Shown: piece by piece, positions 9,376 through 14,229 of the stretch
Layout: each line of letters opens with the position of its first letter
Numbering within the stretch: position 1 is the stretch's first letter
Origin: Planctomycetota bacterium
GTDB lineage: Bacteria > Planctomycetota > Phycisphaerae > SM23-33
Assembly (NCBI GenBank): GCA_048622595.1
Contig: JBMCUM010000001.1
Coordinates: forward strand, 1 to 29,086
Direction: 5' to 3'
Length of the DNA stretch: 29,086 nt
Made by a program: the position numbers and the translations under genes
Notes under the pieces: model-generated
What the model was told of the DNA's origin: nothing
Seen by the model: the letters and a program-made list of their open reading frames with translations, nothing else
Database searches by the model: none

Positions 9376-10037
9376 ATGACAGAATCCGAGGACAACCCGA
9401 GCGACCGTCCGGCGCGGCCCCGTCGCCGGTGGCGCAAGCACCTGATCCGCACGGCGATCATCGCGCCGCTCGTCGCGGCCGCGGTGTGTTACATCGGCGT
9501 CAAGGACCGCTGGTTCAAGCCCCCGTATCCGGATGCCGGCAAGGCCGTCTGCTGGCTCATCGGCGGGCAGGAGGAGGCGTACAACTTCGACGAGGTCGTC
9601 GCCGGCCGCGTCTACCGCAGCGGTCGACCGGACGAGCGCCTCTACCGCTACGCCGCCGAGAAGTACGGCGTCCGGAAGGTCGTGCGCCTATGCGGTCCGG
9701 AGCACACGGACTTCATCCCCCTGCCCCCCGACGACCTGAACATGGACGTGACGATCCTCTCGTGGGAGTCGAGCATCATCCCCCCCCCGACGAGCTGCGG
9801 GGGGTGCTGGACATCTTCGACGACGACACCCCGGCGCTGGTGCACTGCTCGGCGGGCGTTCACCGCACCGGATACGCCGTCGGCGCCTACCGCGTGCTGC
9901 GGCAGGGCTGGTCGGCCGAGCGGGCACGCGAGGAAATGCAGCGGTTCAGTTGGAAGGACCTGTCGGAAAACGAGTTGTACATCCACCTGGGGCGACTGGC
10001 CCGCCGGCGCGACGGCGCGGCTCAGGCCTCCAGGTAG
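9376..10037 (+). pseudogene. Membrane-anchored PTP/dual-specificity-type phosphatase split by a frameshift at a C9 tract
   Basis: Frame from 9376: TM helix, YNFDEVVAGRVYRSGRP, VRKVVRL. Frame of 9789: DEL...ALVHCSAGVHRTG (HCx5R signature)...EEMQRF, stop 10035-10037. Switch falls in the C9 run at 9780-9788. Confidence 0.85.
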
Positions 10038-12673
10038 CACAGCACGCGCTGGTCCAGCACATTGGCGTTGATCTGCGGCCTGCCGCTCAGAGCGTCCGGC
10101 TCGAGGACGCGGACGGCGTCGGCCCAGGCACCGGCCTCCGGCGCCAGCTCGGTCAGCTTGTTCGCCCCGCCGGCCAGCAGGTCCGTATTGAGCCGGTTGC
10201 CCTCGCGGTCGCCGAACAGGGCGAAGTAGAGGATGTCCAGCTCGACGAGTTGGCTGAAGAAGTGCGTCCCCATCGACACGTCCGGGGTGACGTTCTCGCC
10301 CATCGCTACCAGCTCGCACATGATTGAGACGGTGGAGATGTCCGCGAACTGCACGGGAATGCCCAGCGACGGCGTGGTCGTGCCCCACCGACCCGGGCCG
10401 ATCAGCATGTACGTCCGCCCGGCCTCTGCGCCGTCGACCGAGGCGCCCGCGCCGGGCTCGGGGTGCGTCAGCCGTCCGATCAGCCGCGCCACGGCGTAGC
10501 GGTCCGGGATGGGCAGCTTATCGTACACCGACGGGACGACGTAGATGATCCGGTCGATGTGTCCGCTACGGCTTCGACCCAGCACGGCGCCACGGGCCTC
10601 CAGAAGACACTTCTCGTCCGGCAGGTTCTCCGGCGGCGGTTCGATCGCCCCGCCCTCGCGGACCTGCAAGGGGCGGCACTGAAGCATGTTGATCCTGTAC
10701 CCGCCTTCGGGGGTCGACTCCCCGCTCGCGGCGTCGACGAGATTGACGCTGAACTCGATGTCCACCGGGTATTCGTAGGCCCGCTGGAGCGTCGCGAGCA
10801 TCTCCCGCATGTCCGCGACGAAGTCCGTACGGGAAAACAGATTGTCGAACGTCAGTACCAGTGCAGCCGGGTCGTCCAGCCCGACGCGCCGGGCGACCTG
10901 CTGGTCGCGCGTGGCGAACATGTCGATCGGCAGCCCCTCGCTGCGGGCGACGACGTCGGTGAACCGTTTGGAAACCAGCCGGTTGGCCTCCAAGTCCAGC
11001 ACGTCCACCTTGCGCTGTGAGTACTGGCGGATCTGGTCGAAGTCGCCTTCGGGCCTGCGGTCCGGGGCGTTCAGCGCGACCAGGCGGGTGTAGTCGTCGT
11101 CGCTCCGCTCGACGGCGCGCGTCCCCAGCCCGAAGGCGAGCCGCAACACGCCGGCGGCGGGGTCGATCTGAGGACTCCAGACGTAGGGGTTGAACGAGAA
11201 CCCCACCCCCGCCGCCTGCGGGTAGTACAACTGCCGCCCGTACATCGCCCCGCTGACGCGCTGGACCAGCAATGCCATCTGCTCGTCCCGGTCCAGCAGC
11301 CCGCGCTCGGCGCGGTAGCGCAGGGCCCGCTCGGACATGCTGGAGGCGTAGATGGCGCGGACCGCGGCGAGGAAGTTGTCCAGCCGCGCCTGGCGCGGTC
11401 CCTGATTCACGCAGAAGACGCTGTCGTACTTTCCCGCGAAGGCGTTGCCGAAGTTGTCCTCCAGCAGGCTCGAGGAGCGCACGATGATCGGCGACTGCCC
11501 AAAGTAATCGAGCATGTCCTCGAACTGCTGGCGGACGTAGTCGGGGAATTCGCCGGTGAGCATCCGCTGGCGGGCCTGCTCGGCGCCTTCCAGGAAGCTT
11601 CCCGGGTCGCGCTGCTTGGCGCGGGTCCACCACAGCCCGTTGCGAACGAGATACGTGTAGAACACGTCCGACCCGACGTAGAACGAGTCGTGACGCTCCA
11701 GCAGGCGGTTCCAGCGCGGGTCGGCCTGGGCGAGAATCGCCCGCGCCAGCAGCATGCCCACGCTCTTGCCCCCGATCAGCCCCGTCCCGACCATCCGCCG
11801 CCCGATCGCCAGCACGTCGGTCAGCGAGAAGTACCGCTCGGCCAGGGCGAGCACGCGCTCGTCGCGCGAAACGGCCATCCGCAGCAGACGACGGAGGATC
11901 GATGCGGCTTCCTCGCTGCCGGCAGCGCCCCGGGGGGGTTCCTCGATCGCGCGCTCGCCGGCGACGAACGTCCGGTCCCACAGCCCGGTCGGGAAGGTCG
12001 CCGCGTCCTGACGCAGCCAGGGGTTCTGTGTGAGAATCTCCGCGATGACCGTGCTGTGTGTGATCGTGCGGAAGTTCTCGCCGTCGCGCTCGTGGAGCAT
12101 GTGCATCGTCGGCGAGTGACGCCCCTGGACCTTCCACGGATGAACGTACTGCCTGCCCTCGTGACGGTAAACGTCCATCAGAATCTGTGCCGTCTCGGCA
12201 ATGGTCGCCGTCGTGTGCGCCGCGTGCGTCTGACGCATCAGCAGGAAGTACGCCAACGCCCCGACGTCGTAGATGTACGGGCAGGTCAACATGAAGAAAT
12301 TCGCCAGCATCTGGTCGCTGTACCAGTCGGCCGCCAGGTCGCTGAGGCAGTCGAAGACGTAGTACGCCCGCGCCCCGTTGTCGGCGATGACATGGTGGAT
12401 CTCGCCGAGGAACGCCTCGAACCCCGCCGTCGCATCCAGCGGGAAGACCCGGACGCCGTCGCCGGGCTCCATCAGCGGCGGGTGCTTGGCGAAGCGAAAG
12501 TAGACGCACGGATACCCCAGCCGCCGCGCCGCGGACGCGTACGCCGGCAGAAAGGCGCGATAGTCTTCCACCGACTCCACGTGCCAGACCACGTTGTCCC
12601 CGGCCATCAGCCCGCGAACCACGTCGTCCAGCCCGGTCAGGCCCGTGCTCAGTTGCGTATCCATCTGGGGCAT
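10022..12673 (-). CDS. PEP/pyruvate-binding (PPDK_N ATP-grasp) domain protein with a degenerate KaiC/RecA-like N-terminus (883 aa)
   Basis: LSTGLTGLDDVVRGL N-terminus without a Walker A; IIVRSSSLLED..FAGKYDS, MALLVQRV, FGLGTRAV, VDIEF, LQCRP; C-terminal GPGRWG..LGIPV..SMGTHFF; RBS GGAGAG. Confidence 0.85.
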   Translation of the reverse strand: MPQMDTQLSTGLTGLDDVVRGLMAGDNVVWHVESVEDYRAFLPAYASAARRLGYPCVYFRFAKHPPLMEPGDGVRVFPLDATAGFEAFLGEIHHVIADNGARAYYVFDCLSDLAADWYSDQMLANFFMLTCPYIYDVGALAYFLLMRQTHAAHTTATIAETAQILMDVYRHEGRQYVHPWKVQGRHSPTMHMLHERDGENFRTITHSTVIAEILTQNPWLRQDAATFPTGLWDRTFVAGERAIEEPPRGAAGSEEAASILRRLLRMAVSRDERVLALAERYFSLTDVLAIGRRMVGTGLIGGKSVGMLLARAILAQADPRWNRLLERHDSFYVGSDVFYTYLVRNGLWWTRAKQRDPGSFLEGAEQARQRMLTGEFPDYVRQQFEDMLDYFGQSPIIVRSSSLLEDNFGNAFAGKYDSVFCVNQGPRQARLDNFLAAVRAIYASSMSERALRYRAERGLLDRDEQMALLVQRVSGAMYGRQLYYPQAAGVGFSFNPYVWSPQIDPAAGVLRLAFGLGTRAVERSDDDYTRLVALNAPDRRPEGDFDQIRQYSQRKVDVLDLEANRLVSKRFTDVVARSEGLPIDMFATRDQQVARRVGLDDPAALVLTFDNLFSRTDFVADMREMLATLQRAYEYPVDIEFSVNLVDAASGESTPEGGYRINMLQCRPLQVREGGAIEPPPENLPDEKCLLEARGAVLGRSRSGHIDRIIYVVPSVYDKLPIPDRYAVARLIGRLTHPEPGAGASVDGAEAGRTYMLIGPGRWGTTTPSLGIPVQFADISTVSIMCELVAMGENVTPDVSMGTHFFSQLVELDILYFALFGDREGNRLNTDLLAGGANKLTELAPEAGAWADAVRVLEPDALSGRPQINANVLDQRVLCYLEA

Positions 12674-12888
12674 CGGTACACTCTCCGTTCGGCGCGCCCG
12701 CTGTTGCTATCATACTGCCGGGGCGGCCCCATAAGCGGCGATGGACGGTTCTATTGCGACTTCTTATGAACGTCCGGCGGCTCGGGGCCCTACAATCCGG
12801 GACTTGGCGTGCATCATACCCGGCGCAGGAGCCCGGCGAAGCGCCCTGCACAGCGAGACTTCTGAGGAATTTCTGAGGAGACGATCCG

Positions 12889-14229
12889 ATGTCCGAGCAA
12901 TACGTCGATGACATCATGGCCCAGGTCGCCCAGCGCAACCCGGGCGAGGACGAGTTTCACCAGGCGGTTCGTGAGGTGGCCGAGTCGGTCGCCCCGGTCG
13001 TCGACAAGCGCCCCGAGCTGGCCAAGGCGAAGATTCTCGAGCGGATGATCGAGCCGGAGCGGCAGATCATGTTCCGCGTACCATGGCTCGACGACAACGG
13101 CGACGTACAGGTCAACCGCGGGTTCCGGGTGGAGTTCAACAGCGCGATCGGCCCGTACAAGGGCGGTCTGCGGTTCCACCCGTCGGTCTACCTGGGGATC
13201 ATCAAGTTCCTCGGCTTCGAGCAGATCTTCAAGAACGCCCTGACGACCACCCCCATCGGCGGCGGCAAGGGCGGAAGCGACTTCGACCCCAAGGGCAAGA
13301 GCGACAACGAGGTCATGCGCTTCTGCCAGAGCTTCATCAGCGAACTGTTCCGCCACATCGGACCGTACACCGACGTCCCGGCCGGTGACATCGGCGTCGG
13401 CGGACGCGAGATCGGGTATATGTTCGGCCAGTATAAGAAGCTCACCAACACCTTCACCGGGGTGCTGACGGGCAAGGGCATCGGGTGGGGCGGCTCGCTC
13501 GTCCGCACCGAGGCGACCGGATACGGGCTGGTCTACATCGTCACCCGCGCGCTGGGCGACCGGGGCGAAAACTGGAACGACAAGCGCGTCGTCGTCAGCG
13601 GGTCGGGCAACGTGGCGATCTACGCCACGCAGAAGGCCCAGGAGCTCGGCGCCAAGGTCATCGCCCTGTCCGACAGCAGCGGGTACGTCGTCGACGAGGA
13701 CGGCATCAAGCTCGATACCGTCAAGGACATCAAGGAGGTCCGCCGTGGGCGCATCCGCGAGTACACCGAGCAGCACGCCTCGGCGAAGTACACCGAGGGA
13801 TGGGAAGGCATCTGGTCCGTCCCGTGCGACGTGGCGCTGCCCTCCGCGACGCAGAACGAGATCGACGGCGACGCGGCCAAGCGGCTCGTCGACAACGGTT
13901 GCATCGCCGTCGGCGAGGGCGCCAACATGCCCTCCACCCCCGACGCCGTCGACGTGTTCCAGGAGGCCGGGATCATCTTCGTCCCCGCCAAGGCCGCCAA
14001 CGCCGGCGGCGTGGCGACCAGCGCGCTGGAGATGACGCAAAACTCGATGCGCCTGGACTGGAGCTTCGACGAGGTCGACGCCAAGCTCAAGGGCATCATG
14101 AACGCCGTTTACGATCAGGCCTCCGGCGCGGCCGAGCAGTACGGCAGGAAAGGCGACCTGGTCGCCGGGGCAAACATCGCCGGTTTCGTCAAGGTCGCCG
14201 ACGCCATGCTCGCCCAAGGCGTGGTCTGA
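12889..14229 (+). CDS. gdhA: NADP-specific glutamate dehydrogenase
   Basis: [49 protein letters not shown]; RBS GAGGAG. Confidence 0.97.

Follow-up and report, generated by a model that had tools for sequence, protein, structure and literature searches.

A dikinase-like protein family with no PEP/pyruvate domain is linked by gene order to glutamate dehydrogenase in at least ten phyla

VadK (Rv1127c) of Mycobacterium tuberculosis is a pyruvate, phosphate dikinase (PPDK) minus its phosphoenolpyruvate (PEP)/pyruvate domain; it autophosphorylates on a histidine and interacts with methylcitrate-cycle enzymes, and its authors concluded that it derived directly from PPDK (bioRxiv 10.1101/2025.10.30.685616). 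In nitrogen metabolism, GlnE and GlnD are dedicated nucleotide-using modifiers that switch a central nitrogen-assimilation enzyme. Here we describe a dikinase-like gene that resembles the former in architecture and may resemble the latter in role. The gene (10022..12673, minus strand; 883 aa) lies in a 29,086-nucleotide stretch of DNA, referred to below as the window, from a Planctomycetota bacterium (GenBank assembly GCA_048622595.1, contig JBMCUM010000001.1, positions 1 to 29,086; G+C ∼70%), where it is divergent from gdhA, the gene for glutamate dehydrogenase (GDH). Its product had originally been predicted to be an ATP-dependent, autophosphorylating regulator of GDH.

Our analysis establishes the domain anatomy of the 883-aa protein, its intact ATP-site residues, an invariant histidine in its C-terminal domain and the genomic coupling of its family to gdhA, gltBD, nrpR and amt. 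We propose, with a probability of roughly 0.45, that it acts as a phosphotransfer enzyme of the dikinase type, gated by a signal and serving GDH and nitrogen assimilation specifically. By analogy, VadK would be the closest precedent in logic for this proposal, since it too joins an ATP-grasp to a histidine domain (a candidate one in the present case) and has no PEP/pyruvate domain, although the likeness is one of architecture only. VadK has a canonical swivel domain and no KaiC-like domain. It is moreover tied to the methylcitrate cycle, whereas the present family is GDH-linked, its C-terminal domain is divergent and its phosphorylation is predicted only. In physiological role the closest analogues appear to be GlnE and GlnD, and some relatives of the 883-aa protein are fused to Pol-beta-type nucleotidyltransferases of the same superfamily. 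The 883-aa protein itself, however, has no nucleotidyltransferase and would act by phosphotransfer through an ATP-grasp and a histidine rather than by adenylylation or uridylylation, and its presumed target is GDH, not glutamine synthetase (GS) or PII, making this too an analogy and not a homology.

Domain anatomy of the 883-aa protein

The 883-aa open reading frame (ORF) is a real, conserved gene, since its third-position G+C content is of coding type (0.91, compared with 0.93 for gdhA) and full-length homologues of 55–88% identity occur in thousands of assemblies. Use of Met4 as an alternative start would yield an 880-aa protein, and the database copy (P0003) begins there. An AlphaFold2 (AF2) model of the whole protein, computed from a 70-sequence family alignment, reached a pLDDT of 90.7 and a pTM of 0.90. 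The sole Pfam domain is PPDK_N (PF01326; aa 299–676, 158 bits). Over the 250 aa at the N-terminus and the 212 aa at the C-terminus there was no Pfam match even at E = 10, and neither the N-terminal nor the C-terminal domain described below is matched by Pfam.

The PPDK_N-type ATP-grasp domain (aa 299–676; 10646..11779, minus strand) has the intact core that had been predicted. In the AF2 model, aa 263–671 superpose on the ATP-grasp of rifampin phosphotransferase (RPH) and PEP synthase (PEPS) with Z scores of 22–26. Conservation at the ATP site is almost complete among the 70 family members: K303 is present in 69, R399 and E640 in all 70, position 418 is Ser in 68 and Thr in 2, and both residues of the Q665-x-R667 pair are likewise conserved (69–70 of 70). 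Lys22, Arg117, Thr136 and Glu297 of RPH have been probed by mutagenesis (PMC4844700). A HMMER alignment pairs R399 with RPH Arg117 and S418 with RPH Thr136, while the pairing of K303 with Lys22 and of E640 with Glu297 is by motif only (GGK and DIEF, respectively). As judged from these residues, the ATP-grasp looks fully competent.

The N-terminal domain (aa 1–217; 12023..12673, minus strand) adopts a KaiC/RecA fold (Foldseek E values of 1e-9 to 1e-8). VIA-align superposed it on KaiC CII, PH0284, PH0186 and Sso2452 with Z scores of 18–21 and a root-mean-square deviation (rmsd) of ∼2.8 Å over ∼205 residues. The site of the P-loop, after strand 1, reads HVESVEDY and holds no GxxxxGK[ST]; the family consensus at this site is GDNxVW......DY, again with no Gly-Lys-Thr. 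Both the fold and the missing Walker A had been anticipated from the sequence. Because there is no Walker A and only a Walker-B-like Asp108 is retained, we regard the domain as a pseudo-ATPase. Twelve of its residues are at least 90% conserved among 51 full-length members (G25, D26, N27, V29, Y58, F61, G84, F85, E86, F107, D108 and S111). The domain thus shares with KaiC and the archaeal KaiC-like ATPases its fold (Z ∼21) and an LSTGxxGLD-type N-terminal start, but differs from KaiC in that a single KaiC-like domain, devoid of Walker A, is fused to an ATP-grasp within an 883-aa protein. The two are joined by a helical linker (aa 218–298; 11780..12022, minus strand) with AF2 helices at 231–244, 250–267, 272–281 and 284–292.

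The 207-aa C-terminal domain (aa 677–883; 10025..10645, minus strand), hereafter the C-domain, is a candidate divergent phosphohistidine swivel domain. It contains the SMGTHFF motif (aa 800–806) singled out by the original prediction, within which His804 is the proposed phospho-acceptor (codon at 10262..10264, minus strand; 10253–10276 translates as SMGTHFFS). Invariant in this domain are GPGRW (aa 759–763, including R762), E787, S800, G802, H804 and E811, the motif being S-x-G-[T/S]-H-F-F. His804 is found in all 70 family members, including short forms of ∼30% identity, and residue 803 is Thr or Ser in 68 of the 70. In the AF2 model, His804 starts a helix that follows a beta strand and a flexible loop, the same local layout as that of the swivel-domain TSH motif. 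Modelled alone from 59 sequences, aa 677–883 reached a pLDDT of 91, and the best scores that VIA-align returned against representative structures (Z 4.4–5.7) were with swivelling beta/beta/alpha domains. These weak fold matches include, with proper domain limits, the phosphohistidine domains RPH 764–867 and PPDK 384–512, as well as those of Enzyme I and EI-Ntr, and also the last domain of pyruvate kinase (Z 4.4–5.3 for RPH, PPDK, Enzyme I and pyruvate kinase); two comparisons with RPH 764–867 gave Z 5.3 (rmsd 3.0 Å, 98 aa) and Z 4.9. Whole-model superpositions extend to the C-terminus, covering 386 residues of RPH (5hv3) and 368 of PEPS (2ols) as compared with 265–297 for the ATP-grasp alone. 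A profile of the 59 C-domains searched against all PDB sequences gave nothing meaningful, and PF00391, the GGxTSHAA swivel domain, gave no match in the 883-aa protein even at E = 10. We take the C-domain to be a probable, very divergent phosphohistidine domain.

The PEP/pyruvate TIM barrel is missing, as had been predicted: PF02896 has no Pfam match in the 883-aa protein, the AF2 model contains no barrel and the chain ends 79 residues after His804, which leaves no room for one. In comparison with PpsA and PPDK, the protein therefore has a PPDK_N ATP-grasp with the same catalytic residues and a probable histidine relay, but lacks the PF02896 barrel and the GGxTSHAA motif, and with each equivalog model it reaches less than 10% of the cut-off score (TIGR01418, 41 versus 740 bits; NF005057, 38 versus 598; NF004531, 23 versus 456). 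The rifampin phosphotransferase RPH-Lm (PDB 5hv1, 5hv3 and 5fbs; PMC4844700) provides the best ATP-grasp match (Z 22–26), has equivalents of the conserved ATP-site residues and bears its histidine on a small domain that is C-terminal rather than central, a position that would be matched here by the candidate domain with His804. In contrast to RPH, however, the 883-aa protein has no RIF-binding domain, so that its C-domain directly follows the ATP-grasp (which ends at ∼aa 676), and it has gained a KaiC-like N-domain; the C-domain is twice as long, with no detectable sequence likeness to PF00391, and the gene context is nitrogen assimilation rather than antibiotic resistance. With the RPH model NF041857 the protein obtains 40 bits, whereas the cut-off is 999.

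Genomic coupling to glutamate dehydrogenase

gdhA (12889..14229, plus strand) encodes a 446-aa NADP-specific GDH of the hexameric class (PF00208 and PF02812; NF006929, 766 bits versus a cut-off of 536). It shares with the dikinase-like gene a divergent intergenic region (12674..12888) which measures 215 bp, as originally given, or 224 bp if translation starts at Met4. A consensus scan of the 215 bp found no sigma-70-like promoter and no regulatory motif, the only feature it returned being a terminator-like hairpin on the plus strand (12738–12757). Just upstream of the gdhA start codon, over the ribosome-binding site, lies a direct repeat, TTCTGAGGA-AT-TTCTGAGGA (12860–12879), which doubles the ribosome-binding GAGGA.

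The original prediction had stated that similar proteins often neighbour gdhA. We compiled neighbourhood statistics for 80 loci from species-representative genomes, in which GDH was sought by tblastn with the GdhA of the window. The association was borne out: GDH lies within 10 kb of the family gene in 37 of the 80 loci, mostly directly adjacent and in at least ten phyla. Lineages represented among the linked loci are Planctomycetota, Verrucomicrobiota, Kiritimatiellae, Armatimonadota, Hydrogenedentota, Spirochaetota, Acidobacteriota, Omnitrophota, several deltaproteobacterial lineages and Gammaproteobacteria, and the GdhA orthologues that adjoin a family gene in other phyla are 58–76% identical to that of the window. 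Orientation varies among these 37 loci, gdhA being upstream on the same strand in 15, convergent in 12, divergent in 7 and downstream on the same strand in 3. When loci of at least 15 kb were considered, gdhA was present in 25 of 43 and at least one nitrogen-assimilation gene in 31 of 43. Label-free clustering of ORFs combined with Pfam across the 80 loci again placed gdhA at the top (36 loci), followed by gltB (17), gltD (12), a directly adjacent nitrogen repressor of the NrpR type (11), amt (9), histidine kinases (8), a sigma-54 GAF activator (7), pyrG (5) and glnA (5). No other gene of the window is conserved beside the family gene in these loci, except hisC in 2 of the 80.

Within Planctomycetota the family is patchy, with relatives in 31 of the 201 genomes sampled. 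In 22 of these 31, a GDH-family gene lies on the same contig within 10 kb, compared with a chance expectation of ∼1% (20-kb window, up to 3 GDH genes, 2–12-Mb genome). The 22 include relatives at only 30% identity as well as GDHs of a second ELFV class, which are 32–37% identical to GdhA; among the 9 unlinked genomes, several relatives sit on short contigs or where a contig ends. Fifteen canonical PEP-utilizer genes from 4 of the 31 genomes served as a control, and not one of them shares a contig with a GDH gene. These data confirm that the association with GDH extends to the whole conserved core of the family, ATP-grasp plus C-domain.

The family as a whole is large. At least 8,000 word-sharing candidates were found, all with E ≤ 0.001. 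The family has at least 3,670 clusters at 50% identity (692 at E ≤ 1e-30), and of 185,579 species genomes at least 596 contain a match. Full-length members are 55–60% identical across phyla. Variant forms differ chiefly in what surrounds the core: short forms of ∼620 aa have no N-domain, forms of ∼770–1100 aa have other N-termini, and forms of ∼1480–1650 aa carry two tandem PPDK_N plus C-domain cores, most with a terminal nucleotidyltransferase (P0124, P0204 and P0274–P0288). The tandem forms suggest that short and long paralogues may work as pairs. A C-terminal Pol-beta nucleotidyltransferase occurs only in relatives of ∼1050–1650 aa and is absent from the 883-aa protein. The only fusions seen among proteins of 1547–4415 aa were tandem and nucleotidyltransferase ones; none joined the family to GDH. 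When six GDH-adjacent Planctomycetota relatives were checked, three had N-terminal receiver domains and one a nucleotidyltransferase; His804 and the ATP-site residues are invariant in these variant forms as well.

A locus from another Planctomycetota genome (L176; G140:C134:7000-16000) brings these forms together on one strand, beginning with a receiver-domain relative (535–3549, 1004 aa) and continuing with a relative that has a C-terminal Pol-beta nucleotidyltransferase (3799–6978, 1059 aa) and then gdhA (7166–8524, 452 aa). This three-gene set is a fuller version of the same module as the dikinase-like gene and gdhA of the window. At a further locus (L175; G024:C331:5000-16000), a GdhA-type gene and a 1007-aa relative are grouped with a gene for the transhydrogenase beta subunit PntB (7028–8860) and a GDH of the second class (9343–10617), a grouping that hints at a link to NADPH supply.

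The genome from which the window comes is metagenome-assembled and 64% complete. On its contig 41, genes for the glutamate synthase (GOGAT) large subunit (a 1563-aa frame) and GS adjoin each other (4679–5806 and 8560–9654). The presence of GS and GOGAT as well as GDH in one genome makes switching between two assimilation routes a real physiological need. PII and NrpR were not found in this 64% complete genome.

Proposed function and alternatives

In the mechanism we propose, the intact PPDK_N ATP-grasp would bind Mg-ATP, and the swivel-type C-domain would bring His804 to the nucleotide to be phosphorylated, as happens in PEPS, PPDK, RPH and VadK. The phosphohistidine domain would then pass its phosphate to an acceptor outside the polypeptide, most probably GDH or a GDH-bound partner, with the outcome that GDH could be toggled between active and inactive as the supply of nitrogen or energy changes. 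The KaiC-like domain, devoid of Walker A, might serve for regulation or oligomerisation, as it occupies the position that receiver domains take in relatives. We count in favour of this scheme that GDH-linked relatives swap their regulatory end, whether for receiver domains at the N-terminus or for a Pol-beta nucleotidyltransferase at the C-terminus. The original prediction had at its mechanistic core that His804 is autophosphorylated and that GDH is then controlled, which is plausible.

Several observations nevertheless weigh against the proposal. The swivel fold expected of the C-domain is supported by the weak VIA-align matches, but these do not exceed Z 5.7, which is under the level that VIA-align calls reliable, and swivelling beta/beta/alpha domains that are unrelated (chaperonin apical, DRTGG and RraA) score equally well; Foldseek with the C-domain alone gave no match at E ≤ 0.001, and hhalign against a PEP-utilizers profile, built from 22 swivel domains of Planctomycetota PPDK, Enzyme I and PEPS genes, gave a probability of 0.1%. 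As to the coupling, 12 of the 43 long loci are without any nearby nitrogen gene. A GdhA-type gene occurs in 67 Planctomycetota genomes, and in about 49 of them no family relative was found at E ≤ 1e-30, demonstrating that GDH works without this partner in many organisms. We also set 40 linked GdhA proteins against 40 others, taken from Planctomycetota genomes where the search for a relative had found none. Linked and unlinked GdhA are interleaved in the tree, with at least 13 changes of state, and the linked proteins do not form a clade; the tree held 12 antisense-frame rows, but the interleaving is seen also in its correctly translated 76-row part. No alignment column of the corrected rows separates the two sets, the best contrast being 75% versus 23%. 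Since no column discriminates and the linked GdhA are not a clade, a modification site on GDH is not indicated. Finally, a metabolic partner would account for the gene adjacency just as well as a regulator would.

One alternative is that the protein is a metabolic small-molecule dikinase working with GDH, whose phosphohistidine domain would pass phosphate to one of the metabolites in the GDH reaction; 2-oxoglutarate, for example, could be activated at its 2-oxo group as PEPS does pyruvate, giving ATP-driven, high-affinity assimilation by GDH. The characterised full dikinases of the superfamily (PEPS, PPDK, RPH and HpeI) all phosphorylate small molecules, an identity of 55–60% across phyla over 880 aa is very high and usual for enzymes, and the same-strand order of gdhA then family gene, with gaps of ∼100–230 bp (15 loci), fits co-expressed pathway partners. 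GDH, moreover, binds a 2-oxoacid, like the missing PEP/pyruvate domain, and split dikinases with the acceptor site on a separate subunit exist, phenylphosphate synthase and HpeHI being examples. We consider this explanation unlikely, however. The 883-aa protein has no recognisable substrate-binding domain, and its KaiC-like domain is swapped for receivers or absent in GDH-linked relatives, which is how a regulatory module behaves rather than a catalytic site. The Pol-beta nucleotidyltransferase fusions point to modification of macromolecules, as with GlnE and GlnD, no phosphorylated intermediate of such a kind is known, and GS–GOGAT already provides ATP-driven assimilation in this genome. Much less probable again is a bolder version, in which GDH and the 883-aa protein together form an ATP-driven ammonium-assimilation machine. 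Here the phosphohistidine domain would dock on GDH, which would replace the missing PEP/pyruvate domain; GDH-bound 2-oxoglutarate or an equivalent would be phosphorylated, ammonia would displace the phosphate and the imine would be reduced in place. Such coupling would render GDH irreversible, raise its affinity and add a third ATP-dependent route to GS–GOGAT. A less radical form of the same idea would be a hitherto unknown covalent on/off switch of bacterial GDH, like that of GlnE on GS.

The original prediction had also held that the protein is not a metabolic PEP synthase, and in this it was right. Some database names given to it are 'pyruvate, phosphate dikinase' and 'pyruvate, water dikinase', and there are weak NCBIfam matches to PEP synthase, PPDK, RPH, PigC and RedH models, but these fall far under the cut-offs (64 versus 883 and 40 versus 999 bits) and are confined to aa 330–497. 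Neither the PF02896 barrel, PF00391 nor a RIF-binding domain is present, the gene context is nitrogen assimilation rather than gluconeogenesis or resistance, no gene for a PEP/pyruvate domain is among the conserved neighbours, and a separate canonical PPDK is encoded on contig 6 of the same genome. Because the acceptor domains are missing and the defining features fail, the protein is not a PEP synthase, PPDK or RPH, and we virtually discount the idea of a genuine PEP synthase or PPDK, or of an RPH-like xenobiotic phosphotransferase; alone, it cannot perform the PEP/pyruvate half-reaction. It retains a dikinase's first half, an ATP-grasp and a probable histidine carrier, together with an exchangeable regulatory module (pseudo-KaiC, receiver or none), and is tied to GDH by gene order. 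A different question is whether GDH is the true target. The protein might instead be a general nitrogen-status signalling protein acting on GOGAT, GS, Amt, NrpR or a transcription factor, with gdhA as merely the commonest member of its regulon. Where gdhA is missing, the locus frequently carries gltBD, amt, glnA, histidine kinases or a sigma-54 GAF activator in its stead (L014, L035, L058, L064, L071, L076 and L083), nrpR is directly adjacent in 11 loci, and the failure to find PII and NrpR in this incomplete genome would also suit such a role. We judge this somewhat less likely than a small-molecule dikinase, since gdhA is twice as frequent as the next neighbour (36–37 versus 17 loci) and distant short-form relatives in Planctomycetota almost all adjoin a GDH-family gene, including one of another class. 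It would be difficult to account for distant relatives beside GDHs of two classes if the partner were anything other than GDH.

A full-text search of the literature found no paper on this family, which represents a new architecture, with a new conserved partner, in the dikinase/phosphohistidine superfamily. In public records these 880-aa proteins are misannotated as PEP synthase or PPDK, although they are genomic partners of GDH, gltBD, nrpR and amt in at least ten phyla. GDH stands at the junction of carbon and nitrogen metabolism, and little is understood, beyond a few model organisms, of how bacteria and especially anaerobes shut it off under ammonium scarcity. If the protein is indeed an enzyme dedicated to modifying or assisting GDH, it would supply a missing post-translational layer of nitrogen control, of the rank of GlnE and GlnD, and would be the second case, after VadK, of a dikinase recruited for regulation. 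Thousands of annotations would be corrected and a false PEP synthase removed from the metabolism reconstructed for uncultured Planctomycetota, Verrucomicrobiota, Spirochaetota, syntrophs and Omnitrophota.

Other genes of the window

On the other side of the dikinase-like gene lies a small convergent gene for a PTP/DSP-like phosphatase (9376–10037, plus strand; Pfam Y_phosphatase2 and DSPc) with the CX5R motif HCSAGVHRTG. The two genes share 16 bp at their 3′ ends, and a −10 box close to consensus, TATAAT, is found by the phosphatase gene at 9362–9367. The reading frame is shifted at a run of nine C residues (9780–9788), which could be a homopolymer assembly error or phase variation. The phosphatase was considered as a functional partner of the dikinase-like protein and judged incidental, because it has no counterpart in the 80 related loci and is frameshifted.

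Further downstream of gdhA, genes for a nickel metallochaperone like HypA and for a hydrogenase maturation protease of the HycI type (15126–16133, minus strand) directly adjoin hisB, hisC and a CDP-alcohol phosphatidyltransferase gene; no hydrogenase structural gene accompanies them in the 29,086-nucleotide window. At 5778–7298 (plus strand), this bacterial genome encodes a fused type I 3-dehydroquinase/shikimate dehydrogenase (AroD–AroE) of 506 aa.

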